Positions 12,425 through 33,906 are shown, numbered from the stretch's first letter. The stretch: 33,906 nt of DNA from Acidimicrobiales bacterium (GCA_036273495.1 DASUHN010000370.1:1-33906); one strand, 5' to 3'. The notes: generated by a model from the sequence alone, not told the origin. Numbers and translations: made by a program.

Positions 12425-13252
12425 GTGCCAGAGCGGAGGGGACCCGGCGGGCAACCGCCCGTGGCGCTAACCATCGCCGGCTCCGACTCGGGGGGCGGGG
12501 CCGGGCTCCAGGCGGACCTGAAGGCCTTTGCCGCCAACGGGGTGTTCGGGGCGTCGGTGGTCACGGCGGTGACGGCCCAGAACACCCGGAAGGTGGCGGC
12601 CGTCGTGGCCATGGAGCCGGATTTCGTCGAGGCCCAGCTCGACGCCGTGCTGTCGGATCTGCCGGTCGCGGCGGTGAAGACGGGCATGCTGGCCACGGCC
12701 GGCATCGTGCGGGCGGTCGGCCGGCGCGCCCGGGCCGGCGAGCTCCCCAATCTGGTGGTGGACCCGGTGATGGTGGCGTCCAGCGGGGACCGGCTCCTCG
12801 ACGAGGACGCCGTGGACGCCTACCGGGAGGAGCTGTTCCCGGCGGCGTTGCTCATCACCCCCAACCTGCGGGAGGCCGGGCTCCTGGTGGGGCGTGCGCT
12901 GGCCGGGCCGGACGACATGGAGCGGGCCGCCCGGCAGCTGGGCGAGGCCGGTCCCGCCTACGTGCTGGTCAAGGGCGGCCATCTTTCGGGTGACGCCGTG
13001 GACGTGCTGTACGACGGCCGGACGTGCACGGAGTTGCGCGCCACGCGGGTGCAGACCGCCAACGTCCATGGGACCGGCTGCACCCTTGCCGCCACCGTGG
13101 CCGCCGGCCTGGCCCGGGGGCGCGACGTCCCCACCGCGGTGAGCGAGGCCAAGAGCTTCGTCACCGGGGCCATCCAGGGCTCGGCCGGGTGGCACCTGGG
13201 CGAGGGCCACGGTCCGTTGGACCATTTCGGCTGGGGCCCCCGCACCTCGTGA
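12425..13252 (+). CDS. thiD: hydroxymethylpyrimidine/phosphomethylpyrimidine kinase
   Basis: [34 protein letters not shown] and HGTGCTLAA are present. GTG at 12425 lies 7 nt after GGAGGGAG; alternative starts are 12419 and 12461. Confidence 0.9.
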
Positions 13253-14706
13253 GCGCCGCCCCGGCCTCCGTGGTCGACGACGGGACCATCGGCATCGAAC
13301 CGGCGCCGGCCGGGCTCCGCCGGCTGTCCGGCGTCGATCTCACCGTGCTGTGGGGGGACCTGGCCGTCGGCGTCCTCGTGCTGGCCGCCGGCGCCCTGCT
13401 GGTTGCTCCCGCCAGCGCCTCCGGACTGGGGATGGACCCGCGGCGGGCCCTCTGGGCCATCCTCATCGGATCGGCCGCCGGCTCGCTGCTCCTGGCGTCG
13501 GTCGGCGTCCTCGGCCACGACCGCGGCGTGCCCACCATGGCGCTGCTGCGCCCGGTCCTCGGGCGCTACGGGAGCTGGCTCGCATCCGGCGTGAACGTGG
13601 CCCAGCTCCTGGGCTGGACGGCCTTCGAGTTCTGGGCCATGGCGCAGTTCGCCAGCCGGGTGTCGCGCACGGTGTTCGGCTTCTCGGGCTTCTACCTGTG
13701 GCTGGCGGTGATGGCCGGGACCTGCACCGGCCTGGCGCTCCTCGGCCCGATCCGGTTCGTGCGGGTGTGGTTGAAGCGCGCCGGGGTCTGGATCGTCCTC
13801 GGGCTGTGCGGCTATCTGACCGTCTACCTCCTCGTGAAGCACCCGGTCGGCGGCCTGCTCTCCCGCCCCCGGAGGGGAGCGCCGCTGCTGGTGGGCGTCG
13901 ACCTCGTCATCTCCCAGCCGGTGTCGTGGCTCCCCCTCGTGGCGGACTACACCCGCTTCTCGTCCGGCCGCCGCCAGGCGCTCGGGGGCACCTGGGCCGG
14001 ATACGCCCTCGGCAACACCTGGTTCTACGGCCTCGGCGCCCTGCTGGTGTTGTCGGCCCGGCTGTCCGACGCCTCCCCCGCCGGCATCGCCGCATCGGTC
14101 CTCGGCCTCTCGGCCAGCGTCGCCACCGGGGTCGTGGTACTCGTCGCACTTCTGGGTGGGGAGACGCACGAGGCCTTCGCCGACATCTATTCCGCCGCCA
14201 TGTCCGCCCGCAACATCGGCCCCCGCCTCAACCATCGCTGGAGCGTGCTGGTCGTGGCGGCCATCGGCACCACCGTGGCCGCCCTCGTGACCCTGGGGAG
14301 CTACGAGGCCTTCCTGTTCCTGTTGGGGTCGGTCTTCGTCCCCCTGTTCGCCGTCCTGCTGGCCGACTGGGCGCGCTCGGCACGGGACCGCACCGCGTCC
14401 GGACCGGAGGAGGAGACGAGGTGGCGCCCGACCATGCTGGGCGCCTGGCTGCTCGGGATCGCCTTCTACCACTGGCTGCTTCCGGCCGGCACCATGCCCG
14501 CCTGGTGGACCCGCGACGTGATGAGCCACCTGCCGAGGGCGGGTCTGCACAGCGGCTGGGGGGCATCCCTGCCGTGCTTCCTGGTGACCTTCGCGCTGGC
14601 CTTCCTGCTCGGAACGCTCGGCTCCGCCATCCGGCGCTCCGGCTCACCGGGGCGCGGTGAGGTGCACCTCCGTGCGGTAGGGGAGGGGGAACGACTCCCC
14701 GACTGA
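13249..14706 (+). CDS. cytX: NCS1 / purine-cytosine permease family transporter; putative hydroxymethylpyrimidine transporter CytX
   Basis: The GTG start overlaps the thiD stop as GTGA. The protein is a 485-aa polytopic membrane protein. The substrate assignment comes from thiD and TPP-riboswitch context, not from sequence alone. Confidence 0.75.
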   Translation: MSAAPASVVDDGTIGIEPAPAGLRRLSGVDLTVLWGDLAVGVLVLAAGALLVAPASASGLGMDPRRALWAILIGSAAGSLLLASVGVLGHDRGVPTMALLRPVLGRYGSWLASGVNVAQLLGWTAFEFWAMAQFASRVSRTVFGFSGFYLWLAVMAGTCTGLALLGPIRFVRVWLKRAGVWIVLGLCGYLTVYLLVKHPVGGLLSRPRRGAPLLVGVDLVISQPVSWLPLVADYTRFSSGRRQALGGTWAGYALGNTWFYGLGALLVLSARLSDASPAGIAASVLGLSASVATGVVVLVALLGGETHEAFADIYSAAMSARNIGPRLNHRWSVLVVAAIGTTVAALVTLGSYEAFLFLLGSVFVPLFAVLLADWARSARDRTASGPEEETRWRPTMLGAWLLGIAFYHWLLPAGTMPAWWTRDVMSHLPRAGLHSGWGASLPCFLVTFALAFLLGTLGSAIRRSGSPGRGEVHLRAVGEGERLPD

Positions 14707-21953: not shown

Positions 21954-22451
21954 TCAGCCGGGCAGGACCACCTCGACCGACAGCCCCCGACCGGCCAGGT
22001 CCACGCTCGCGTTGTCCTCCTCGTAGCGCCGGCCCTGGACGTTGAACAGCCGGACCGGCTCCTCGCCGAAAGGGAACGGGCCCCAGTGCCACGTCCCCCG
22101 GTGCAGGACCACGGCCTGCAGCGGATGGAGCACGAACGCCCGCACCGACGCGGTCGGCCGGGCGCCGGCGAAGTCCTCCGCCGCCGGGGCCACCGCCACC
22201 ACCGAGTCGCAGTTCAGCGCCATCAGGCACTGGGTGTGGGTGTCGTGGCGGAACATGACGTCGCAGCGCAGCCCGCCGGGCAGGACCGTCACCTCGTCCA
22301 GGGTGTGGCCGATCACGTTGACGTGGACGTCCGCCCACGCGAACTCCAGGCGGTGGCTGCCGTCGCGGGGGTCGGTGTCCTCCACCGGGATCCATCCGAA
22401 GGGGTCCCACGCCTCCTCGGTCAGCTCGACCGCCGTCACCCGCTCTGGCAC
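21954..22451 (-). CDS. ureidoglycolate lyase (AllA-like) family protein
   Basis: By-eye alignment to AllA: LTEEAWDPFGWI, FRHDTHTQCLMAL (ERHPLGTQAFIP-like), VVAVAP, and VRAFVL..QAVVLHRGTWHWGPF (LRAF...QGVNYHRNVWHHPLF-like). Confidence 0.65.
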   Translation of the reverse strand: MPERVTAVELTEEAWDPFGWIPVEDTDPRDGSHRLEFAWADVHVNVIGHTLDEVTVLPGGLRCDVMFRHDTHTQCLMALNCDSVVAVAPAAEDFAGARPTASVRAFVLHPLQAVVLHRGTWHWGPFPFGEEPVRLFNVQGRRYEEDNASVDLAGRGLSVEVVLPG

Positions 22452-22534
22452 GTTCCGGCTCCCGCTTCTACGCTGCGCCGGCCGAACGTTAGACGCCGTG
22501 CGCGCCGGGCGCTCGGGCCGGAGGAGGGATCGAG

Positions 22535-22918
22535 ATGGACGTCCGCAACATTCGCGACAAGGCGCCGGTGGTGGAGCACAACGGCACGGTCCCGGTCTGG
22601 TGGATGGTCGAGTCCCAGGAGATGAAGGACCTCACCGACGGGGGATTCCTCGAGCTGGTCAACGAGTTCGAGGTGGCCGGGGGCGGCGCCGTCGACCCGC
22701 ACTCCCATCCGACCCACGAGTTCTACTACGTGATGTCGGGGCGGGGGATCATGGAGATCGAGGGGGACCAACGGGAGATCAGCCAGGGTGACCTGGTGCA
22801 CATCCCCCCGAACAAGGTCCACACCCTGCGCCCGGTCACCGACCACGCCCCGATCCACTGCTTCTGCTTCGCCATCGGTGTGCCCGGCGCGGGCCCGATC
22901 GACTACACCAACCACTGA
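22535..22918 (+). CDS. cupin domain protein
   Basis: The two cupin motifs are GGGAVDPHSHPTHEFYYVMSGRG and GDLVHIPPNKVHTL. SD GGAGGAGGG lies upstream of ATG 22535. Confidence 0.85.
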   Translation: MDVRNIRDKAPVVEHNGTVPVWWMVESQEMKDLTDGGFLELVNEFEVAGGGAVDPHSHPTHEFYYVMSGRGIMEIEGDQREISQGDLVHIPPNKVHTLRPVTDHAPIHCFCFAIGVPGAGPIDYTNH

Positions 22919-22931
22919 GTCACTCCGGGGA

Positions 22932-22952
22932 ACGGGCGCGGCGTGCGCCCGT
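22932..22952. terminator. hairpin between convergent genes; candidate bidirectional terminator
   Basis: Perfect 8-bp stem ACGGGCGC (22932-22939) / GCGCCCGT (22945-22952) with a 5-nt loop. It lies between the cupin stop (22918) and the livF stop (22956). Confidence 0.4.
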
Positions 22953-22955
22953 CGC

Positions 22956-23669
22956 TCATCCGCCCAGGTAGGTGCTGGCCAGCACCGAGCTGCGGCGCAG
23001 CTCCTCGGGCTCCCCGACGAAGTCGATGCGGCCGTGGGTCATCACACAGCAGATGTCGGCCAGCTCGAGCGCCCGGCTCATGTACTGCTCGACGAGGAGG
23101 ATGGCGATCCCCTGCTCCTTCAGCAGGGCGATGTCGGCGAACAGCTGCTCGACCACGATCGGCGCCAGCCCCATCGAGATCTCGTCGACCATCAGCAGGC
23201 GCGGCCCGGCCAGGAAGGCCCGGCTGATGGCCAGCATCTGCTGCTCGCCACCGGACAGGGTGCCGGCCCGCTGGTCGAACCGCTCCTTCAGCCGGGGGAA
23301 GTGCTCGAGCACCCAGGCCAGGCGGGTCTGGCGCTGCGACCGGTCGGATCCGGCGTTGGTGTTGACCCGCAGGTTGTCGCGCACGTTGAGGTTGGGGAAG
23401 ATGCCCCGGCCCTCCGGGATCAGCACCAGGCCCCCGGCTGCGGTCTCGTGCGGCGCCCGTCCGTCGATGCGCCGGCCGGCAAAGCGCACCGCCCCCCGCC
23501 TGCACTCCACCAGCCCGGCGGCGGTGCGCAGGGTCGTCGTCTTGCCCACCCCGTTGGGGCCGAGGAGCGCCACGACGGTGCCGGCGGGAACCGTGAGGTC
23601 GACGCCGTGCAGGATCTCGATGCGGCCGTAGCCGGCCACGACCCCGTCGAGCTCGAGGAGCGGAGCCAT
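22956..23669 (-). CDS. livF: branched-chain-amino-acid-type ABC transporter ATP-binding protein (LivF-like)
   Basis: Walker A GPNGVGKTT, signature LSGGEQQ and Walker B LLMVDE are present. The ATG shares one base with the livG stop (TGATG). Confidence 0.9.
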   Translation of the reverse strand: MAPLLELDGVVAGYGRIEILHGVDLTVPAGTVVALLGPNGVGKTTTLRTAAGLVECRRGAVRFAGRRIDGRAPHETAAGGLVLIPEGRGIFPNLNVRDNLRVNTNAGSDRSQRQTRLAWVLEHFPRLKERFDQRAGTLSGGEQQMLAISRAFLAGPRLLMVDEISMGLAPIVVEQLFADIALLKEQGIAILLVEQYMSRALELADICCVMTHGRIDFVGEPEELRRSSVLASTYLGG

Positions 23670-24424
23670 CAGCTGGCGGTCCCGAGGTAGGCCGCCTGCA
23701 CGGCCGGGTCGGCGGCCACGGTATCCGGCGTCCCGGAGGCGATCAGCTGGCCGAAGTCCATCACGTAGACCCGGTCGGAGATCGTCATGACCATGTCGAC
23801 GTCGTGCTCCACGAGCAGGATGCCGATCCCGCTGGCGGCGATCCCCCGCAGGATCCGCGACAGCTCCTCGGTCTCGTTGGTGTCGAGGCCGCTGCCGGTC
23901 TCGTCGAGCAGTAGCAGGCGGGGCCGGGTGCACAGGGCTCGGCCCAGCTCGACCAGGCGCAGGACCCCGGTGGACAGCTCTCCCGCGACGAGATCGCGCG
24001 CCCACTCCAGCCCGACCTGGGCCAGGCTGGCCTCCACCGCCGCCACCACCTCGGGCTCGTCGGGGTGGCGCAGCCGGAACAGGCCGCGCAGGACGCGCCC
24101 GGGGCGCGCCATCTCGGCGGCCACCTGGAGGTTCTCGAACACCGTCATGCCGCTGAAGACCTCGAGACGCTGGAAGGTGCGGCCCATCCCGAGCCGGGCC
24201 CGGACGTGGGGCTCGAGGTTCGTGACGTCGCTGCCGTCGAAGCGGATCCGGCCCCGTGTCGGCCGCAGGAGCCCGGTCATGCAGTTGAACAGCGTGGTCT
24301 TGCCCGCACCGTTGGGCCCGATGAGCGAGGTGATCTTCCCGTTCTCGGCTGCCAGCTTCACGCCGTCGAGAGCCACCAGGCCACCGAAGCGATGGGTGAC
24401 GTTGTCGACCTCGAGCAGGGTCAC
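23669..24424 (-). CDS. livG: branched-chain-amino-acid-type ABC transporter ATP-binding protein (LivG-like)
   Basis: Walker [19 protein letters not shown], a degenerate signature LSTGVLR and Walker B LLLLDE are present. GTG at 24424 overlaps the permease stop as GTGA. Confidence 0.9.
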
Positions 24425-26541
24425 GGGCCGCCCCCTCGACCGGCCCCGACCCGCTCCCGGGCAGGGACGTCGGCCAGGAGCCGCCGGGCGAACTCGGACG
24501 GCTGAGGCCGGGCCGCAGTGGGAAGGACGCCGGCCGGTCCCGCCTTCCGGGCCTGGGCGCGCTGGGCCCGCGCCAGGGCGCGCAGAGCCGGTTTGGGCAC
24601 GGCCCCGATCTGCGCCACCCGCCGGGCCACCCCCACGAGCGACCTCCCGGGCAGGACGCCGAGGGACAGGGCCAGGACGGCGAACAGGATGTCGGACACT
24701 CCGAACTTGTGCAGCACGATGTTGAGCATCTCGTACAGCACGGCGCCGACCACGCCGCCGGCGAGTGAGCCGACGCCGGCCACGACGACCACCACGAACC
24801 AGGTGAGGCTGGTTTGCAGCGGGTCGAAGTACAGCCCGTTGAACAGCCGGGTCTGCTCGGCCAGCAGGGCGCCCCCGATGCCGGCGATGAAGGCGCTGAC
24901 GGCGAAGATGAACAGCTTGTAGCGCCGCAGGTCCACCCCCACGGCGCGGGCCGCCGTCTCCGAGTCGCGCATGGCGCCCAGGATCCGGCCCAGCCGGCCC
25001 CGGCGCAGGTTGCGGGCCAGCAGCAGGATCAGCGCCACCCACGCCAGCTCGAAGTAGTAGAAGGCGTGCTCGCCGTCGAACGACCAGCCGAACAGGCTGG
25101 GCCGGGACACGGCGATGCTCCCCGATCCCACGACCAGGTCGTCGGTGAAGACGAGGCTGTACACCAGAAGGCCCATGGCCAGGGTCATGAGCCCGAGCAG
25201 CAGGCCCCGCCGGTTGAGCACCGGAAAGCCGGTGAGAACCCCGAGCACCATGGCCGCCACCCCGCCGAGGAGCATGGAGAGGATCACGGGCACGTGGACG
25301 GCGGTGGCGGCCTCGGCCGCCACGAAGGCGCCGATGCCGGCGAACCCGGCCTGGCCCAGCGTGATGTAGCCGCAGAACCCGGTGATGCACACGATCGAGG
25401 TGAACACCACGACGAGCGCCAGCATGACCTGGCCCTCCCCGATCGTCCCGACCGTCAGCAGCCACGGCAGGACCACGGCGACGAGGGCAACGACCGCACC
25501 GAGCAGCACCGGGGTGCGCGCCGCCCGGGCCCGCCGGCCCAGGCCGGCGGCCACCAACCCGCCCCGGCTGACGGCCCGGGCCACCGTGGCCGTGCTCTCG
25601 CTCTCGTCGAGACGGCGCAGGACCACCAGGGCCACGACGAGCAGGACAGCCGACAGGTTCTGCTCGATCTGGCCCACCACGTAGGTGATCCACGTCGGCA
25701 GGTGCCAGTGGAAGACCGGAAGGATGCGGGGGTTGAAGTGGGTGAGCAGGCTCGACGCCACCCCGAGGGCGATGCCGGTGACCGCCGCCGCCGGCATGCT
25801 CACCAGCCGGGCCACCACCGCGACCGAGAAGGTCTCGAAGACCACCAGCAGGGTGAGGTGGAACGGGTCGAGGTAGAACAACGGCGCCAGCAGCACGCCC
25901 GTCAGCCCGGCAAAGCCGCACCCCAGGGCCCACGCCATGGCCGAGACCCGGTTGGAGTCGATGGCGGCCAGCTCGGAGAGCTCCCGCCGGTCGACGACGG
26001 CACGGATCTCGAGCCCCAGCCGGGTGCGCCCGAACATCAGCCACATCAGCACGCTGATGGCGGCGACGAGGACCACGACGACGAGCTGGTCCTCGCCGAT
26101 CCGCACGCCGGCACCGAGGCTGAGAGCCCGGTTGCTCACGATGTCGGGCGCGTCCTGGCGCACCAGGCCGGTCCAGATGGCGTACATGAGCCCGAGGAGC
26201 AGCAGGAACACGCCGAGAATGGCGACCAGCCGCTCGGCCTGGCTGGCGCCCCGGCGCTCGAGAGGCCGGAACACGAACCGCTCGAGCAGGAGGCCCACGC
26301 CCGGACCCACCACGATCACCCCGAGGGGGGCGGCGATGCCGAGGGGCCAGTGCCACCGGGCGTTGAGCTGCCAGACCACGTAGGCCACGAGCACGGCGAT
26401 GGCGCCGTAGGCGAAGTTGAACACGCCGGTGGCCCGGTAGGTCAGCACCACGCCCATGCCCGCCAGCGAGTAGATGGCGCCGGCGGCGATGCCGGCTACG
26501 ACCAGCTGGAGCCAGATGGAGGTGGCGAAGCCGAGGACCAT
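24421..26541 (-). CDS. fused LivH-LivM type ABC transporter permease (706 aa)
   Basis: The N-terminal approximately 310 aa are LivH-like ([26 protein letters not shown]...). The region from about aa 345 is LivM-like ([19 protein letters not shown]...[19 protein letters not shown]...). It is one uninterrupted frame with a basic approximately 70-aa C-terminal tail. Confidence 0.85.
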
Positions 26542-26560
26542 GTCAGCCGGGACCCATGTG

Positions 26561-27169
26561 TCAGCTGCTCGAGAGGGCGGGCTCGCAGACCCGGCAGGCG
26601 GAGAGGCCGCGCTGCTCGATCCCGCGGGCGTTCACCGCCTCGACCCCTTCCTTGCCCCGCACCATCTGGCAGCCGGGGGCGTGGTAGGTCGTACCGGTCG
26701 GGAGGGCCACCAGCCCCGCCGACTCCGCGGCGGCGCCGTTGGCCGACGGGCCGGTCCGGGCGGCACCGACGGCGCCCGGCGAGCGGGGGCTCCCGACCAG
26801 GTCGGTGGGGGCGTCGGGGTGGGCCAGCAGGACGGCGCGCAGCTCGCCGACCATCTCCTCGAGCCGCTCGATCCGGCCCGTGTCCTGGCGCCGGCGCTCG
26901 GCGCTGATGATCGCCGCGCCGATGCCGACCAGCGCCACCCCCCCGAGGCCACCCGAGATGAGATAGGGGAGCTGCTTGGCGACGAGGGCCTGGCCGGAGA
27001 CGCCGTACCACCCGACGATGATCACGACGACGCCGACGGCGGCGAGGATCCAGCCCGCCCAGGGCAGCACGGCCCCGGCCGCCCACTTCCAGAACAGCGC
27101 CGCGTCGGGCAGCCGCTCGTCGTCGGCCCCCACGCGGGAGACCGGAACACTCATGACGTCATCGCTCAT
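26561..27169 (-). CDS. two-TM membrane protein with a C-terminal YHxxxC...CxxC (sunset/Ada-like metal-binding-type) motif
   Basis: The ATG overlaps the upstream stop as ATGA. Two TM helices (WAAGAVLPWAGWILAAVGVVVIIVGWY and LPYLISGGLGGVALVGIGAAII) are followed by a short helical segment and then TYHAPGCQMVRGKEGVEAVNARGIEQRGLSACRVCEP. Confidence 0.7.
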   Translation of the reverse strand: MSDDVMSVPVSRVGADDERLPDAALFWKWAAGAVLPWAGWILAAVGVVVIIVGWYGVSGQALVAKQLPYLISGGLGGVALVGIGAAIISAERRRQDTGRIERLEEMVGELRAVLLAHPDAPTDLVGSPRSPGAVGAARTGPSANGAAAESAGLVALPTGTTYHAPGCQMVRGKEGVEAVNARGIEQRGLSACRVCEPALSSS

Positions 27170-28770
27170 TGGCCACTCCTACGACCGACGCCGCGGACAC
27201 TGGGCCGCGGCCGGTGGAAGCCCAGGCCGACCAGCACGGCGGCCAGGGCCAGGACTACTGACAGGTACAGGGTCGAGAACCGCCGGCTGACGAACGCCCC
27301 GGAGGTCGTGGCCAACTGGCGGGGCGAGCCCCCGGACGCCCCGGGGGTGGCAGAGCTTCCGGTCGACTCCCCGCCGCCTCCGGCCGTGGCGCCCGATCCG
27401 CCGAGAGAGCCCGCGTCCACCGGGAGAGCCGCCGTACCGGTGTCGACGGCCCCGCCGGATGCGGGCGAGGTCGTCGATCCCGGCAGCAGTCCCGCCGGCG
27501 GGGCCGGGAGCGAGCTGCCGGCCGGGGTCGCCGACACCGACGCGCACGACGAACCGAGCGTGTAGTCACCGTTGTAGATGTCTCCGACGAGCGGGGCGGC
27601 CTGGGCGTTGGCCGAGGTGTGCACGAACACCCCGTCGGCCTGGGCCCCGGTGCAGTCACCCACGAGGGGCTGGGGCGGCTTGGCCGTGGCCCCGACGAGG
27701 GTCACGTCGGCGTTGGCCGCCTCCAGCGCCTGCTGCAGAGCGGCGTTCAGGGAGTCGAGCAGAGCGGAGCCGCTGCCCTGCCCGGACACCGTCACCCCGT
27801 TGCTCCCGATGGTGGCGGGCTGGCCGGCCACCGTGACCCCGCTCACCGTCACGACGTCATTGTGGGTGTGCACCCCGGCACCGTCGGTCTTGGCGTGCGA
27901 CTCGGTGTGTACAGAGGCGATGTCGATCATCCCTCCGAGCAGGCTCACCCCGGACAGCTGGGTCTGGGCGTCGGAGAGGAGGGTCGAGCCGGAGAAGTGC
28001 TGGGCGGTCGACGCCGTCATCGACTTCACCGCCACGACCGCAGAGCTGGCCGCCGCCGACGCACTGACCGGGTGGCGCAGGATCAGCGACGCCTGGCGGA
28101 AGAAGGCGGCGCTGGCGGTCGCCAGGCGGTCGCCCCCGGACGAGGCCGAGGCCGGACCAGGAAGGGGCGAGGGGGACGAGGCCGACGACGACGACGCGGG
28201 CGCGCCGGCGGCGGTGGCCGACTCCCCCGGCGCGCTGAACGCCCCCGTGACGGCGTCGGTGGCCACGCCGGCGTCGGGGTCGGCGGAGGCGTCGGCCGCC
28301 GCCGCGTTCAGCGAGGAGGGCTGGCCGGCGCCACCGGCCTGGGTCGAGGTCTGCTGGCTGACGTTCGGCGGCTGCGAGGGCGGGCCCTCGGTCTGTACCG
28401 ACAGCGGGAAGGTCGGAACAGGCTCGCAGTTGAGCTGGCAGATCAGGCTGCCCGTGTTCCCGAAGGTCGGACCGGGCCAGAAGGTCGACGCCCGGGCCAA
28501 CTGGCCGTCGTTGCTGTAGCGCGTGGACCCTTCAGCGAACGAACCGTAGAAGGGCTCGTACACGGCGAAGCCGGCCTGGCCGTTCTCCTCCTCGTGCACC
28601 GCCGCGGCCGCCGCCCCGCCGGAGAAGGTGGTGGGACGGTTGGTGTCGGCTCCCGACGACGGCACGTGGAACGCCGTCAGCCCGCCGAGCGTGAGAGCGG
28701 CCACCCCCAGCCCGGCCCCGGCCAACCGGCGGCCCCGGGAGGGAGCGGACCTCCTCGAGAGAGCGCTCAT
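27166..28770 (-). CDS. exported protein of unknown function with an Arg-rich Tat-like signal peptide and a C-terminal TM anchor
   Basis: The ATG shares one base with the GMC stop (TGATG). The signal is MSALSRRSAPSRGRRLAGAGLGVAALTLGGLTAF. A-, S- and G-rich linkers separate folded-looking segments. The C-terminus is STLYLSVVLALAAVLVGLGF followed by HRPRPSVRGVGRRSGQ. Confidence 0.7.
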   Translation of the reverse strand: MSALSRRSAPSRGRRLAGAGLGVAALTLGGLTAFHVPSSGADTNRPTTFSGGAAAAAVHEEENGQAGFAVYEPFYGSFAEGSTRYSNDGQLARASTFWPGPTFGNTGSLICQLNCEPVPTFPLSVQTEGPPSQPPNVSQQTSTQAGGAGQPSSLNAAAADASADPDAGVATDAVTGAFSAPGESATAAGAPASSSSASSPSPLPGPASASSGGDRLATASAAFFRQASLILRHPVSASAAASSAVVAVKSMTASTAQHFSGSTLLSDAQTQLSGVSLLGGMIDIASVHTESHAKTDGAGVHTHNDVVTVSGVTVAGQPATIGSNGVTVSGQGSGSALLDSLNAALQQALEAANADVTLVGATAKPPQPLVGDCTGAQADGVFVHTSANAQAAPLVGDIYNGDYTLGSSCASVSATPAGSSLPAPPAGLLPGSTTSPASGGAVDTGTAALPVDAGSLGGSGATAGGGGESTGSSATPGASGGSPRQLATTSGAFVSRRFSTLYLSVVLALAAVLVGLGFHRPRPSVRGVGRRSGQ

Positions 28771-30452
28771 CAGGCCACCTCCGCGGCCAGGGCCCGGGCG
28801 TTGCGCAGCGCCAGGGCCACCAGGGTGAGAGTCGGGCCGTAGCCCGACGCGGTGGGGAACGGTGAGGAGTCCGCCACCAAGACGTTGGGTGCCTCGAACA
28901 GCCGGGCCCACTCGTCGCATGCCGCGTCGGCGGGGTCGGGGCCCATGCGCACCGTGCCCATGACGTGGCGGGAGGACGGGACGGGGGATATCTGGGTCCC
29001 GTAGGGCAGCCCGGGCCAGGGCGAGGTGGCGGTCGTGGTCCACCGGGCGCCGGCCGCCTCCATGACCTCGGTGAGCACGGTCGCGTAGTGGGCCGACGCG
29101 ACCAGCTCGTGCTTGTGGGGCTTGTAGGTCACCCGCGCCACCGGCATCCCCCGCACGTCCCGCACGGACGGATCGAGGTCGACCCGGTTGCCGGCCTGGG
29201 GCAGGTCCTCCCCCTGCATGGTGAAGGCCGCCAGGTGCTCGCGCATCTCCGACGCGCGCATGGAGTCCTTGTGGGCCGGCCCCCAGGGATACAGCTTGGC
29301 CTCGAGCACGGGGTGCGAGGCGGCGCCGTGTTCGGTCATCCCGCCCCGGATCCAGGGCAGGTCCGCCTCCCGCGCCGCCCGCCGGGAGTCCTCGTCGTCG
29401 ATCAGATGGTCGTCGTGGAGGTGGGTCACCGCCCGGCCCCGGTGGGGGTGGAGCCGCTCCTCGAGGCGGCCCACCACGAAGGTCTGGAAGTGCACCATGA
29501 GGTTGCGGCCGATGGCGGGGTTCTCGAAGCCCGACAGCATGAGCAGACGCGGGGTCTCGAAGGCGCCGGCGGCCACGACCACCGCCTTGGCCTCCACCGT
29601 GCGGCGGGACCCGTCCAGATCGACCAGCTCCACGCCGGTGGCCCGGCCGGCGCTGGTGACGATGCGGGCGGCGAAGGTGTCGGGCCACAGCTCCGCCCGC
29701 CCGCTCGCCAGCACGCGCTGCAGCATCGCCACCGGGTCCCCCTTGGCGTGGATGGGGCAGGGGAAGTACCCGCAGAACCCGCAGTTGTTGCAGGCGGGCC
29801 GTCCGTCGTAGGGGACCGAGTTGGCGGCGGTGGGAGCGGGATACGGGTGGAGGCCGACCCTCTCGGCGGCGACGGTGGTCAGCACGCAGGCGTACATGGG
29901 GGCGCCCGGGGGCATCGGGAACGGGCTCGAGCGGGGGGCGGCGAAGGGGTTGGTCCCGTCCTCTCCCGCCACCCCGATCAGGCGCTCGGCCTCGGCGTAG
30001 TAGGGCTCGAGCTCGTCGTAGCCGAACGGCCAGTCGGCCAGGGTCGACCCCTCGATCGGACCGCGCTCCGACAGCAGCCGGAAGTCCTCCTCGAGGAACC
30101 GCGGCGTCTTGCCGTCGGCGTGCACCCCGCCTCCCCCGACGGTCGTGGGGATGCTGTTGACCTCGCCGACGTAGGCCCGGTCCCCGTCCCCGGCGTCGAC
30201 CCGGAAGGTGCGCGGCTCCAGGAGCGGATCGGGGCCGAGGAAGTGGCGGACCATGAACTTGAGCTCGTCGTTGCTGTAGTCACCGAGCAGCCGGGTGGGG
30301 TCGGCGGTGTCGATCAGATGGTTGCGGCCCTTCTCGACGATCAGGACCGACCGGCCCGCCTCGACCAGGGCCAGGGCGGCCGCCGACCCGCCCGGGCCCG
30401 AACCGATCACGACGGCGTCGAAGTCGCGCGTCACCCGACGACCGCCACGCAA
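28770..30452 (-). CDS. GMC family FAD-dependent oxidoreductase with an internal Cys cluster
   Basis: FAD-binding motif DAVVIGSGPGGS, the cluster CNNCGFCGYFPCPIHAKG and a C-terminal GMC region (HVMGTVRMG...) are present. TTG at 30452 has GAGGTG 5 nt upstream; GTG at 30434 is an alternative. Confidence 0.88.
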   Translation of the reverse strand: MRGGRRVTRDFDAVVIGSGPGGSAAALALVEAGRSVLIVEKGRNHLIDTADPTRLLGDYSNDELKFMVRHFLGPDPLLEPRTFRVDAGDGDRAYVGEVNSIPTTVGGGGVHADGKTPRFLEEDFRLLSERGPIEGSTLADWPFGYDELEPYYAEAERLIGVAGEDGTNPFAAPRSSPFPMPPGAPMYACVLTTVAAERVGLHPYPAPTAANSVPYDGRPACNNCGFCGYFPCPIHAKGDPVAMLQRVLASGRAELWPDTFAARIVTSAGRATGVELVDLDGSRRTVEAKAVVVAAGAFETPRLLMLSGFENPAIGRNLMVHFQTFVVGRLEERLHPHRGRAVTHLHDDHLIDDEDSRRAAREADLPWIRGGMTEHGAASHPVLEAKLYPWGPAHKDSMRASEMREHLAAFTMQGEDLPQAGNRVDLDPSVRDVRGMPVARVTYKPHKHELVASAHYATVLTEVMEAAGARWTTTATSPWPGLPYGTQISPVPSSRHVMGTVRMGPDPADAACDEWARLFEAPNVLVADSSPFPTASGYGPTLTLVALALRNARALAAEVA

Positions 30453-30491
30453 GCGGGCACCTCGGCGGACGCCACGATGGGTGTCACGCCG

Positions 30492-32084
30492 TCACGACCC
30501 GTCCGGGCTGAACGGTGTCCCGTACCAGGGCAGGTTGTAGCAGGTGCCGATCTTGGCGTCGGTGACGAAGGTCCCGGCGGCGTTGTTCCACTGGCCGATG
30601 GCGTCGCAGGCCGGGGCCGGCTGGCTGTAGTTGAGCGGGGTCCAGGCCACCGGGTCGGCCAGGCCGTCGAAGGTGTAGCCGGGGCCGCCCACAGCGGGCT
30701 GCTTCCAGGAGTTCATCCACTTGAGGAGCCCGGCCCGGGTGGGACTCGATCCCATGGACTTGATGGCGTCCCCGAAGAGCACCCCGAGGCCGTAGCCGTC
30801 GAGCGCCCACTGGTGGAGCTGGGCGTGGGGCTCGTAGGTGGAGAAGTCCTTGCGGAACTGGGCCACGACCGGGTTCGAGGTGTCGGAGTAAGGCTCGGAC
30901 GCGTCGGCGGAGTACACCGAGTCGCGGCACGGGGAGCTCCACTGGCCCACGGCCTGGCCGAACACCTCTACGGTCGACATCTTCACCGGGACCGTGAAGC
31001 CCTGGCGGTCCATCGCCGCGCACAGCTTGGCGTTGCCGGCGGTGTCCATGGCGTCGAAGATCACGTCGACGTGGTCGGCGCGCATGTTGATCACGTCGGT
31101 GTCGAAGGTGGGATCGGCGGGGTTCTCTCCCTCGTGGTTCCCGCCGCCCTCGTAGGTAGTGGCGATGCCCGCCGACTTGGCCCCGACCTCCTCGAAGTAG
31201 CCGGCCTGCTGGGACACCGGGATGATGTAGAAGAAGAAGGCCCCCTTGCTCACGTGCTTGTTGTCGTGAGCCCACTTGTAGACCTGGGCCTGGTTCTCGT
31301 TGGTCGGCGGCAGCTTGCCGTTCCGCGGGTAGCCCGAGCCGTAGATGCTGAACATGTTCGGATACATGTAGTAGCCGTTGCAGAGCGGGAAGCCGACGTC
31401 GGGGACGCCCTGCTGGTACTCGTACTTGGCCGACGAGGCGCAGGCGTCGGTGTTGTTCGCCAACATGGCAAAGACGTGCTTCTGGCTCACCAGCTTGGTG
31501 GCGCACGACAGGTTCTGCTGCCCGTCGGCGGAGTCGTCGCAGGTGTCGAGGATGATCTTGCGGCCGTTGATCCCGCCCCGGGCATTGGTGGCGTTCACCC
31601 ACGCCTGCAGGCCGGGGAGGGTCACGCCGAAGGCGTAGGGCCCGAGGGCCCCGTTGATGGCGGTCACGTTGCCGATCGTGATCGAGTTGGCGGTCACGCC
31701 GACGTCGCTGGCGCCGTTGGCCGCGCCGCCTCCTGACCCACCGCTGCCTGTGGTGCCCCCGCCGGTGCCGCCCGACGACGCCGGGCCCGTCCCGGTGGCC
31801 CCACCCGTCCCCGGGCCCGCGCCCGCGGAGGTGGCCCCGCCCGAGAGCGAGCTACCGCCCCCGCTGCCCGAGCCCGAGGTCCCGCTGAGCCCCGGCCCCG
31901 TCCCGGACCCCGACGCCGTCCCTCCCGGCTGGCCGCCGGCGGAGACCGAGCTCGGGTTGGCCGCGCCGGCAAAGGCGTTGTCGGACAGGCGCGTACCGCA
32001 GCCGGCCAGCCCCAGGCTGATCAGCCCCGCGGCCACGACCCATACGTTCCGACGGACTCTGCGACTGCGCACCCATCTACGCAC
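30492..32084 (-). CDS. ABC transporter substrate-binding lipoprotein (type-1 periplasmic binding fold, Leu/Ile/Val-binding-like) with a long Gly/Ser tether
   Basis: A basic n-region and the lipobox LISLGLAGC are followed by about 85 aa of G/S/T/A-rich linker. The next segment is ITIGNVTAINGALGPYAFGVTLPGLQAWVNATNARGGINGRKI. GTG at 32084 lies 8 nt after AAGGAGGG; GTG at 32072 is an alternative. Confidence 0.8.
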   Translation of the reverse strand: MRRWVRSRRVRRNVWVVAAGLISLGLAGCGTRLSDNAFAGAANPSSVSAGGQPGGTASGSGTGPGLSGTSGSGSGGGSSLSGGATSAGAGPGTGGATGTGPASSGGTGGGTTGSGGSGGGAANGASDVGVTANSITIGNVTAINGALGPYAFGVTLPGLQAWVNATNARGGINGRKIILDTCDDSADGQQNLSCATKLVSQKHVFAMLANNTDACASSAKYEYQQGVPDVGFPLCNGYYMYPNMFSIYGSGYPRNGKLPPTNENQAQVYKWAHDNKHVSKGAFFFYIIPVSQQAGYFEEVGAKSAGIATTYEGGGNHEGENPADPTFDTDVINMRADHVDVIFDAMDTAGNAKLCAAMDRQGFTVPVKMSTVEVFGQAVGQWSSPCRDSVYSADASEPYSDTSNPVVAQFRKDFSTYEPHAQLHQWALDGYGLGVLFGDAIKSMGSSPTRAGLLKWMNSWKQPAVGGPGYTFDGLADPVAWTPLNYSQPAPACDAIGQWNNAAGTFVTDAKIGTCYNLPWYGTPFSPDGS

Positions 32085-33720
32085 CGGGCACGCCCTCCTT
32101 TCCTGCTCCCCCCGTGGGCGCCGATGCGACTCCGCCAACCGTAGACCCACCCCGCCGCAGCGGGCCCGGCACCCGGGGCGGGGCGGGATCTCTCACCATC
32201 GCCTCGGCCAGCACGTCCTCCGCCGCCGCCAACCCGGCCGGCACTGCGTCCGCCAGCATCGCCTCGGCCGGGCCGGACCCCCGGAGGGCGTCGAGGCGCG
32301 CCGACTCGGCGCACACGAACGCCACGTCGTGGGCGTAGTGCCGCCGGGCGAAGATGAACAGCACCCCCGCCATACCGCACACCGGGGCAAACAGCACCAT
32401 GGCCCGCTGCAGCCCGGCGGCGTGGCCCGCCGCTGAGCCCCCGAGGTGGTCGGCCATGATCCCGACGATCAGCGACCCGGAGGCGGACGCGGCGCGCACC
32501 ATCGAGCGCACGCTCGCGGCCCGCCCCCGCAGGTCCGCCACCACCACGTCGTTGAACAGCGCCTCGCTCGGGGCCAGCGGCAGGGTGATCGAGCACCCGC
32601 CGACGGCCAGGAACAGCCCGCTGATGATCAGGCTGTGGGTGGCGAAGCCCAGTGGCAGCGACACCACCGACACCAGCGAGGCCGCCACCACGACGTACAC
32701 CCGGGCGTTCACCATCCCCCGACGGAAGAGGCGGTCGGAAACGACGCCCCCGGCCAGAACGCCGATGATGGCGGTCGGCAGGAGGATCCCGGAGAAGAGC
32801 CCGGCCTTGACGGCGGGGAGGTGGTCCACCCGCTTGAAGAAGGGGATGGCCCAGAACGACAGCGCATTGGCGAGCATCTGCGCGACCGTGAGCGACAGGA
32901 GGGCCCACCACATGGACGGGATGCGGAACAGCTCCTGCATCACCTCGCGGATGCTCGCCTTCTGGTAGTCGAGGGTGCCGACCCGGCGGGGCTGGGGCAG
33001 CCGGCCCGCCAGGGTGAGATCGGCACCTTCCGACGACCCGGCGATGGCGGCCGCGTGCGCCGCCTGCCGGTCGGCCTCGAGGTCGGCGTCCTGCTCGCCG
33101 CGGGCCGGCTCGGGCTGCACCGCGAGGAAGAGGCCGGTGACGACCCCGAGCGGCATCCAGAACCAGAACGCCCAGCGCCAGCCGCCGACCGACACCGCCA
33201 CGCCGCCGCCGATGAACCCGATGAGGGCCCCCACGATCCCGCCGGCGGAGTACCAGCCCATCCGCATGGCCCGCTGCGCGACCGGCCAGTAGTCACCGAT
33301 CAGGGAGATCGACGCCGAGTTGCTGGCCTCGGCAAAGCCGACCCCCAGCCGGAAGGCGAGCAGGGCCGCGAAGCTCCACGCCAGCCCGTTGAGCCCCATG
33401 AAGCCGGTCCAGAGGACCATGGAGGCGGCCAGGACCGCTGTCCGGCGGCGCCGGTCGGCCAGGATCCCGAACGGGGGGGCGCCGACCAGGACGATCAGGT
33501 TGCCCACCAGGGGCAGGAGGGCCACCGTCGAGTTGGAGACGTGGAAGGTGCGCTGGATCCCGTCGGCGGCCTGCGAGAGCGATCCGGTCTCCCCCGCCCC
33601 GAGGGTCATGGTCGCCGCGAGGGCGAGCAGGGGCGCCCAGCCGTAACTCGTCGCCCTAAGGCGCTGCCCCCCAGTCACCCCGGCAACTTCGACGCCCCCG
33701 GCCCCGATACCTACCTGCAC
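32077..33720 (-). CDS. MFS transporter
   Basis: Motif A GILADRRRRTAVL is present, with about 12 TM segments, a central loop and a long C-terminal tail. The start is uncertain: GTG at 33720 has poor GC3 in the first approximately 14 codons, and GTG at 33678 is plausible. Confidence 0.8.
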   Translation of the reverse strand: MQVGIGAGGVEVAGVTGGQRLRATSYGWAPLLALAATMTLGAGETGSLSQAADGIQRTFHVSNSTVALLPLVGNLIVLVGAPPFGILADRRRRTAVLAASMVLWTGFMGLNGLAWSFAALLAFRLGVGFAEASNSASISLIGDYWPVAQRAMRMGWYSAGGIVGALIGFIGGGVAVSVGGWRWAFWFWMPLGVVTGLFLAVQPEPARGEQDADLEADRQAAHAAAIAGSSEGADLTLAGRLPQPRRVGTLDYQKASIREVMQELFRIPSMWWALLSLTVAQMLANALSFWAIPFFKRVDHLPAVKAGLFSGILLPTAIIGVLAGGVVSDRLFRRGMVNARVYVVVAASLVSVVSLPLGFATHSLIISGLFLAVGGCSITLPLAPSEALFNDVVVADLRGRAASVRSMVRAASASGSLIVGIMADHLGGSAAGHAAGLQRAMVLFAPVCGMAGVLFIFARRHYAHDVAFVCAESARLDALRGSGPAEAMLADAVPAGLAAAEDVLAEAMVRDPAPPRVPGPLRRGGSTVGGVASAPTGGAGKEGVPGA

Positions 33721-33735
33721 CTACCATCACCCCCC

Positions 33736-33906
33736 GTGATCGAGGCCGACCAGCCGCTCTGGGGGAGGGTGGAACCAGGGGCCCTGGAGCGAATTCTCGT
33801 GCTCTCCCCCCACTTCGACGACGCCGCCATGGGGGCCGGGCTGCTGCTCCTCCGCCACGCCGGCGGGGCCGAGGCCACGGTGGTGACGGTCTTCGGTGGG
33901 CGCCCG
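33736..33906 (+). CDS. N-terminal fragment of a PIG-L/LmbE family deacetylase; runs off the window
   Basis: GTG at 33736 opens a frame that reaches the window end. VIEADQPLWGRVEPGALERILVLSPHFDDAAMGAGLLLL matches the (V/L)SPHxDDxxxGxG N-terminal motif. Confidence 0.6.
   Translation, partial: MIEADQPLWGRVEPGALERILVLSPHFDDAAMGAGLLLLRHAGGAEATVVTVFGGRP

Follow-up and report, generated by a model that had tools for sequence, protein, structure and literature searches.

Liv-type transporters of the HAAT family (TC 3.A.1.4) rank with the commonest nutrient importers of soil bacteria and are regarded as machines of five parts. The described LivJ/K-HMGF and Urt systems combine BPD_transp_2 permeases with a LivG ATPase bearing a BCA_ABC_TP_C tail, a LivF ATPase and a Peripla_BP_6 substrate-binding protein (SBP). 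An uncultured Acidimicrobiales-like actinobacterium (DASUHN010000370.1; the whole stretch of 33,906 nucleotides is referred to as the window) encodes an eight-gene uptake/catabolic operon whose core is an ATP-binding cassette (ABC) importer with all of these HAAT features, namely two BPD_transp_2 domains, LivG- and LivF-type ATPases and a Peripla_BP_6 SBP. It differs from the described systems in that the permease is one fused LivH-LivM chain (LivHM) with a conserved tail of ~80 residues and in that it is accompanied by two extra conserved genes, encoding proteins of 534 (p534) and 202 (p202) amino acids (aa). We know of no counterpart of either protein in described HAAT systems, and a literature search for auxiliary proteins of HAAT ABC transporters found nothing relevant. 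The importer is that of one Actinomycetota clade, almost always encoded with p202 and usually also with p534, so that the genes of a Liv clade consistently come with those of one or two additional proteins. What is new is this conserved and undescribed accessory pair, for which no curated family matched at threshold and no paper was found.

Extra bitopic or beta-rich envelope proteins accompany the ABC core in two other settings, the Mce-associated proteins and LptC/LptA of LptB2FG, but the analogy goes no further, since p534 and p202 have no detectable sequence or fold similarity to MCE, Lpt or solved proteins. Among NCBIfam models outside Liv, LptB came nearest to the two ATPases; that the system has an SBP speaks for a classical importer.

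p202 and p534 homologues are encoded beside Liv-type genes

Relatives of p202 were collected by a search for its motif in GTDB genomes, one per species, which gave 107 confirmed relatives and 80 loci that were kept; 84 loci (designated by L numbers) were analysed in total by tblastn and iterative hidden Markov model searches, and 44, in which p202 has 5 kb or more of sequence to either side, were taken as well flanked. On the first three encoding contigs, a recurring protein of ~470 to 540 aa with no Pfam match was followed by a p202 homologue, LivHM, LivG and LivF. This core was found in Acidimicrobiales and in one Mycobacteriales metagenome-assembled genome (MAG), with variable placement of the GMC oxidoreductase gene (GMC) and the SBP gene. 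LivH/M permease genes were present within 3.5 kb of p202 in 40 of the 44 well-flanked loci (median gap, 76.5 nucleotides [nt]) and within 100 nt in 23, and Liv-type ABC genes within 10 kb in 41. An SBP homologue was encoded no further than 10 kb away in 36 of these loci, and its side and strand varied. Only 2 of the 44 had a second Liv permease in the same 20 kb, a figure that we take as a rough internal base rate. Homologues of p534 lay directly upstream of p202 in most loci (at least 42) and ended at its start in ~50, and identities to the window proteins co-varied between p202 and LivHM (r = 0.76).

The order of genes was not fixed. Besides p534-p202-LivHM-G-F with the SBP gene upstream or downstream and reversed, we found SBP-LivHM-G-F-p534-p202, SBP-LivH-LivM-G-F-p202 and convergent layouts. 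Carriers included Acidimicrobiia, Frankiales/Mycobacteriales MAGs, Frankia nepalensis CN4, Actinophytocola, Nocardioides, Egicoccus, Haloechinothrix halophila and H. salitolerans. Gene content, coupling, linkage and domain anatomy are observations, and the association between both envelope proteins and a Liv-type transporter, which the first-pass annotation of this DNA had proposed and which absent linkage in other genomes would have spoken against, is real. It is robust and can be tested in cultured strains; H. halophila, H. salitolerans and F. nepalensis CN4 make the question experimentally accessible.

Instead of serving the transporter, p534 and p202 might form a self-contained surface system that shares an operon with the Liv genes and is functionally unconnected to transport. 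The choice-of-anchor P domain to which p534 is related (see below) is otherwise annotated in surface-anchored proteins, and a few p202-like genes without ABC genes have a secreted protein encoded next to them (L036, L046, and L048). However, the Liv linkage holds across classes and in at least four gene orders, with gaps typically below 100 nt, a pattern not accounted for by common descent of one operon alone, and p202 stays beside LivHM where p534 has been lost. We therefore hold a separate surface system to be quite unlikely.

The transporter core belongs to the HAAT family and misses all equivalog cutoffs

LivG and LivF were the best NCBIfam models for the two ATPases. The LivG model scored 230.6 bits on the 251-aa ATPase (cutoff, 362), and the 237-aa ATPase reached 200 bits with LivF (cutoff, 441) and 197 bits with UrtE, both below their cutoffs. 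LivHM scored 112 bits with UrtB (cutoff, 250) and 81 bits with UrtC (cutoff, 296), with LivH and LivM likewise below their equivalog cutoffs, and the SBP scored 27 bits against a cutoff of 477. None of the subunits reached an NCBIfam equivalog cutoff of LivJHMGF or UrtABCDE, and the substrate is therefore not assignable from these families.

The SBP begins with RRWVRSRRVRRNVWVVAAGLISLGLAGCG, which contains the lipobox LAGC, and continues with a Gly/Ser/Thr-rich tether of ~100 residues (about residues 30 to 130); its solved relatives were only remote (4n03, E 1.4e-05). The cytoplasmic tail of LivHM (about residues 625 to 706; window positions 24421 to 24660) carries the motif PSEFARRLL. It is kept among p202-linked permeases, as a PSxFAxRxL-like motif in Acidimicrobiia and with another conserved sequence in the Frankiales group, and is a candidate docking site for p202. 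The protein of the major facilitator superfamily (MFS) encoded at the head of the gene string gave distant anion:cation-symporter-like matches in NCBIfam, far below cutoff, and L005 and L002 also have homologous MFS genes in this string.

p202 combines a membrane hairpin with a predicted Zn-ribbon-like domain

The two transmembrane (TM) helices of p202 (TM1, ~30 to 58; TM2, ~67 to 90) form a helical hairpin, followed by a coiled-coil-like helix to about residue 116 and a linker. The AlphaFold2 (AF2) model (pLDDT 79.4) shows helices at 23 to 58 and 67 to 116 plus a small beta/alpha domain. The sequence after TM2 is Arg-rich, and because of this the long helix and the C-terminal domain are placed, by the positive-inside rule, on the cytoplasmic side. 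An alignment of 34 homologues showed two sets of invariant residues: the motif QLPYxxSGG (Q66-L-P-Y ... S72-G-G), which opens the second TM helix, and H163, C167, C192 and C195 in the C-terminal domain, which is predicted to be Zn-ribbon-like.

A profile search of the Protein Data Bank (PDB) aligned this domain ligand for ligand with the Zn domain of N-Ada (1adn), a weak match (E 0.16). Spacing and context of the ligands are similar (H163-x3-C167-x24-C192-x2-C195 in p202, Cx3Cx26Cx2C in the Ada type; YH-P-C ... G-L-x-x-C-R-V-C-x-P in p202, FCRPSC ... GFRPCKRCQP in N-Ada10). Unlike N-Ada, p202 has His as its first ligand, where Ada has the methyl-accepting Cys38, and carries the domain at the C terminus of a membrane protein, and its scores fall below significance and below the gathering cutoff.

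Such a site could give p202 a sensory or regulatory function in a gated transporter in place of a structural one, with the His/Cys3 Zn site responding to redox state or metal much like the switches of ZAS anti-sigma factors or Hsp33; as a variant, the Ada-like domain would bind nucleic acid or the ATPases and thereby switch transport or expression. The invariance of the four ligands, the cytoplasmic position of the N-Ada-like domain predicted by topology, the tight coupling of p202 to the permease gene and the occurrence of the Zn-ribbon as a separate gene, or its loss, as for a modular regulatory add-on, all agree with a switch. However, Ada-type Cys4 sites serve mainly a structural purpose, the resemblance to N-Ada is weak, no DNA-binding helix-turn-helix was found in p202, and conservation peaks at the hairpin motif and not at the Zn-ribbon, which several relatives lack. 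We regard such a regulatory role of p202 as compatible with the data but unlikely. The redox-gated transporter that the first-pass annotation had raised as an alternative has its sole support in the His/Cys3 motif, which resembles a structural Zn site of the N-Ada type.

The only Pfam family approached by p202 was DUF6233 (18 bits; cutoff, 27.6), which 13 of the 34 family members also matched and for which our literature search found no paper. Scans of the p202 alignment against Pfam and NCBIfam gave no family for the hairpin, the fold search gave no match at E < 1, and the search of PDB sequences gave no solved relative beyond N-Ada. That p202 is a split-off piece of LivH or LivM was rejected (hhalign probability, 0.5%). 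The family is large: a word-indexed search of metagenomes returned 246 homologues at E <= 1e-3, and 1491 clusters at 50% identity were found at E <= 1e-10 among 1.84 billion representatives. Some weaker matches consisted only of repeated Zn-ribbons, such as P0195 (899 aa), P0204 (745 aa), P0241 and P0229, with 7 to 10 tandem Ada-like His/Cys3 ribbons of the p202 C-terminal type.

The two Haloechinothrix loci (L079:9914-10797 and L082:9911-10812) have p202 split into two tandem genes, each for a two-TM hairpin, of which one carries QLPYLISGG and the coiled coil and the second ends in the His/Cys3 Zn-ribbon; tandem hairpin paralogues without the ribbon were present elsewhere (L084:9815-10567, L076, and L077). 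Because of these split and tandem genes, p202 may be a dimeric assembly, which would fit alongside the pseudo-symmetric LivH/LivM-LivG/LivF core. A distant p202-like subfamily (L036:10001-10534, L046, and L048) has no Liv ABC genes at all; its genes lie beside an IclR-like regulator and converge on and overlap a gene for a secreted protein of ~360 aa.

p534 is a putative exported, C-tail-anchored, beta-rich protein

Two hydrophobic segments were found in p534, at residues 16 to 34 and 496 to 521. The first lies in an Arg-rich N-terminal signal sequence of the Sec or twin-arginine translocation (Tat) type, and the second is a C-terminal TM helix, preceded by a disordered Pro/Ser/Gly/Ala-rich stalk (~419 to 499) and followed by a basic, Arg-rich tail. 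The AF2 model (mean pLDDT 61.8, pTM 0.58) consists mostly of long antiparallel strands. From this predicted topology, p534 would be exported, anchored by its C-terminal tail and rich in beta structure. Long low-complexity tethers (~80 to 100 residues, which is unusual) are present in both exported proteins, the SBP and p534, and their lengths could span a thick cell wall.

Neither p534 alone nor its alignment matched Pfam, and the NCBIfam model choice_anch_P (NF040603) was the sole family in the Pfam and NCBIfam scans. p534 itself scored 18 bits (E 0.0022), below the 27-bit cutoff; 12 of 20 family members matched at E <= 0.01 (best, E 8.5e-11), and the central domain of p534 is therefore related to it. 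No paper mentioning choice-of-anchor P was found in the literature search, and the source annotations of p534 and p202 homologues read "hypothetical protein" or, rarely, "choice-of-anchor P." A profile search with p534 added only 8 sequences, the word index being swamped by low-complexity candidates, and no PDB sequence matched in a profile search.

Foldseek against the PDB returned only outer-membrane beta-barrels (TM-score <=0.17, rmsd ~20 A), which we read as generic long-hairpin noise. That p534 is a divergent substrate-binding protein was rejected, since its profile-profile match to the SBP of this operon covered the signal peptide only and the predicted fold is nearly all-beta and not of the Venus-flytrap type.

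Four loci of Frankiales/Mycobacteriales MAGs (L014, L018, L024, and L027) keep p202-LivHM-LivG-LivF-SBP with no p534 homologue; upstream they have a GDPD phosphodiesterase gene on the opposite strand and a gene similar to arginine deiminase (ADI) and amidinotransferases. The related L003 has p534 inserted where these loci have none.

The GMC oxidoreductase is a clade-specific neighbor

The GMC matched GMC_oxred_N (PF00732) and GMC_oxred_C (PF05199) above cutoff, with the GxGxxG sequence of the flavin adenine dinucleotide (FAD) fold, DFDAVVIGSGPGGS, at residues 10 to 23. Its best solved relatives, aligned end to end, were 6a2u_B (E 2.6e-42) and 7w2j_A (E 1.6e-37), from Burkholderia cepacia FAD-dependent glucose dehydrogenase (FAD-GDH; BcGDH) and Gluconobacter fructose dehydrogenase (FDH), respectively. 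The likeness to these catalytic subunits extends over the full length and includes the catalytic-His C-terminal motif, in which His496 of SRHVMG aligned with the NNHITG motif of 6a2u, and a Cys-rich loop at the position of the 3Fe-4S ligands, where C221, C224, C227 and C232 aligned with the loop of BcGDH but with different spacing (CxxCxxCxxxxC, compared with CCxxxxCxxxC in FAD-GDH/FDH). By sequence, the GMC resembles the catalytic-subunit type of FAD-GDH and FDH and is probably an Fe-S as well as an FAD dehydrogenase.

The 3Fe-4S cluster of BcGDH is ligated by the Cys-rich loop of the catalytic subunit; the closest characterized relatives of the GMC are periplasmic and pass electrons from a surface Fe-S cluster to a partner, and the small Gluconate_2-dh3 subunit carries the Tat signal in characterized periplasmic enzymes and is needed for functional expression of BcGDH (PMC6719666). 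An envelope redox module, in which the GMC, p534 and p202 would oxidize a substrate at the cell surface and the lipoprotein would bind the product before import, as the first-pass annotation had supposed, would resemble these enzymes. The stop codon of the GMC gene overlaps the p534 start (TGATG), the Arg-rich p534 signal, with its RR motifs, leaves Tat export with a hitch-hiking partner conceivable, and two GMC subfamilies recur near p534 and p202. However, the GMC has neither a signal peptide nor room for one, as the FAD fold starts the protein and the reading frame extends at most 13 codons upstream, and it has no hydrophobic segment. The window differs from the FAD-GDH/FDH complexes in lacking both the small and the cytochrome c subunits: jackhmmer with the L002 small subunit found no Gluconate_2-dh3 homologue among window open reading frames (ORFs) of >=60 aa, and no ORF of >=80 aa in the window contained the CxxCH motif of c-type cytochromes. 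The full-length small subunits in related Acidimicrobiia loci, which start with MPVFFSD... or similar, have no twin-arginine signal either. Because of these absences, the GMC is most probably cytoplasmic and would oxidize an imported compound. We consider surface oxidation very improbable.

Adjacent small subunit genes were present in L002, L008, L010, L015, L026, L028 and L030; the exceptions L001 and L006 are cut at a contig end. Comparison of window positions 28770 to 30491 with L008:630-1190, L002:4872-5438, L010:3318-3866 and L026:5128-5676 showed that the small subunit precedes the GMC in those loci. There is no room for it in the window or in L005, where only 32 to 39 nt separate the SBP and GMC genes, and the small subunit gene of the window GMC either was lost or lies at another place in the genome.

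The trio of GMC, p534 and p202 that had been taken as one insertion did not hold together. GMC genes lay near p202 in only 11 of the 44 well-flanked loci (MFS genes in 7) and were absent from about three-quarters of the loci with p534 and p202; elsewhere they were upstream, downstream or on the opposite strand. FAD-GDH-like GMC genes near the module were confined to a subset of Acidimicrobiia (L001, L002, L005, L006, L008, L010, L015, L026, L028, L030, and the window), immediately upstream, with an MFS gene between, divergent or 5 kb downstream. The order SBP-GMC-p534 without a small subunit was confirmed in the window and in L005 (p202 81% identical); L001 looks alike but is cut within the GMC. 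Pseudonocardiales and L041 have instead, a few kilobases away, a GMC of a different, choline-dehydrogenase-like subfamily, so that two lineages use two different subfamilies in variable positions and strands. The earlier reading is corrected in that the flavoprotein is a separate, clade-specific neighbor or catabolic add-on and no part of the conserved p534/p202 pair, and the surface-redox idea is not supported.

Proposed organization of the importer

On balance, we lean towards an account in which the locus encodes a Liv-type importer with p202 and p534 as accessory proteins, the GMC is a separate cytoplasmic oxidizer and the MFS protein an independent route. p202, probably dimeric, would lie in the membrane beside LivHM, with its coiled coil and Zn-ribbon in the cytoplasm near LivG/LivF and the LivHM tail, and could stabilize or regulate the transporter complex. 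p534 would be held at the outer face by a long and flexible stalk, close to the binding lipoprotein with its own long tether, and could aid substrate capture or handover, or assembly of the complex. The GMC would act in the cytoplasm on a compound that has been imported, and the MFS protein would provide a second, independent route of uptake or efflux.

Several points weigh against this account. The p534 model is of moderate confidence (pLDDT 61.8), so that its fold, and hence its role, is tentative. One Frankiales/Mycobacteriales subclade has p202-LivHM-G-F and no p534, which is therefore dispensable, and three or four p202-like genes (L036, L046, L048, and L074) have no LivH/M-type permease nearby. 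Two GMC subfamilies recur in two lineages, and a link between GMC oxidation and the transporter may therefore be more than incidental. We infer the contact of p202 and p534 with the transporter, as we do their topology, roles and stoichiometry and the location and function of the GMC; the cytoplasmic location of the latter is read from absent signals, and its characterized relatives are periplasmic and need the small subunit (PMC6719666).

A stronger claim, which we think rather doubtful, would make a p202 dimer and p534 genuine additional subunits, so that the binding-protein-dependent ABC importers of monoderm Actinomycetota would include an architecture not described before. The stalk-tethered p534 and the tethered lipoprotein would then pass substrate through the wall to the permease, and the cytoplasmic coiled-coil/Zn-ribbon subunit would couple to or gate LivG/LivF; because of the acyl-CoA, enoyl-CoA hydratase, P450 and GMC neighbors, the substrate might be hydrophobic or of the alcohol type. 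Should p202 and p534 prove to be subunits, the HAAT class would gain new accessory parts, which could give a handle on substrate delivery to, or regulation of, ABC importers in monoderm, thick-walled bacteria.

Operon layout

All eight genes, including the MFS gene, were found where the first-pass annotation had placed them on the minus strand, and their family assignments held in Pfam and NCBIfam (Table 1). Direct reading also bore out its four start/stop overlaps (GMC/p534, TGATG; p534/p202, ATGA; LivHM/LivG, GTGA; LivG/LivF, TGATG) and its two gaps (SBP/GMC, 39 nt; p202/LivHM, 19 nt). The MFS and SBP genes overlap by 8 nt, and AAGGAGG lies upstream of the SBP GTG start. Start/stop overlaps are ordinary in high-G+C actinobacterial operons, and the packing is therefore not unusual in itself.

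Table 1. Genes and hairpin of the operon in the window
Feature	Coordinates	Strand	Assignment or remark
MFS transporter gene	32077-33720	-	MFS_1 (E 1.5e-38)
Substrate-binding lipoprotein (SBP)	30492-32084	-	Peripla_BP_6, E 7.3e-33 over residues 134-472
GMC oxidoreductase	28770-30452	-	GMC_oxred_N/C
p534, 534 aa, predicted exported	27166-28770	-	No Pfam match
p202, 202 aa, two TM helices	26561-27169	-	Only a sub-threshold DUF6233 match
Fused LivH-LivM-type permease (LivHM), 706 aa	24421-26541	-	BPD_transp_2 x2 (PF02653), E 2.2e-50
LivG-type ATPase, 251 aa	23669-24424	-	ABC_tran (PF00005) + BCA_ABC_TP_C (PF12399)
LivF-type ATPase, 237 aa, final gene of string	22956-23669	-	ABC_tran (PF00005)
G+C-rich hairpin	22932-22952		Between convergent livF and cupin genes; fold + shuffle control

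Promoter-like and terminator-like sites were sought by a consensus scan of positions 22400 to 33906 with a shuffled-sequence control (G+C content of the window, 70 to 75%). No promoter-like site was found in this region, and just two terminator-like matches were found, both within livHM and not above the count in shuffled sequence. The single, tightly coupled gene string that had been proposed, MFS gene included, is supported, with its four overlaps and no internal terminator-like site above chance. From the gene layout, the natural reading is one transcription unit of ~10.8 kb from the MFS gene to livF. The hairpin reported after livF exists (an 8-bp G+C stem and a 5-nt loop without a U-run), but its stability was no better than that of shuffles (z = 0.33, 72% G+C DNA), and it may serve as a terminator that has no U-tract.

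An ORF resembling PIG-L/LmbE starts near 33736, divergent from the MFS gene, which is for this reason most likely the first gene of the operon. The ORF is truncated (33736 to 33906, plus strand; motif, VLSPHFDDAAMG), and only ~15 nt of apparent intergenic space separate it from the first GTG of the MFS ORF; the true MFS start is therefore probably further downstream.

Neighboring genes

Genes found frequently near the module encoded acyl-CoA dehydrogenase (17 loci), short-chain dehydrogenase/reductase (15 loci), enoyl-CoA hydratase (11 loci), luciferase-like monooxygenase (11 loci) and aldehyde dehydrogenase (10 loci). Several lineages had a cytosine/purine/allantoin-type permease, a ureidoglycolate-lyase-like protein or an ADI-like enzyme near the module. 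A hint that alcohols or polyols may belong to the substrate class comes from the recurrence of GMC genes. Neither SBP homology nor the neighboring genes, which are too mixed, named a substrate.

The window itself encodes a cytosine/purine/allantoin-type permease (12994 to 14706, plus strand), a ureidoglycolate-lyase-like protein (21954 to 22451, minus strand) and a cupin (22535 to 22918, plus strand). The recurrence of these three genes near the module in both Acidimicrobiia and Mycobacteriales loci (L001, L002, and L003) could point to ureido or guanidino nitrogen compounds as the substrate, in conflict with the acyl-CoA-type neighbors elsewhere; L002 also has creatinase-like genes.

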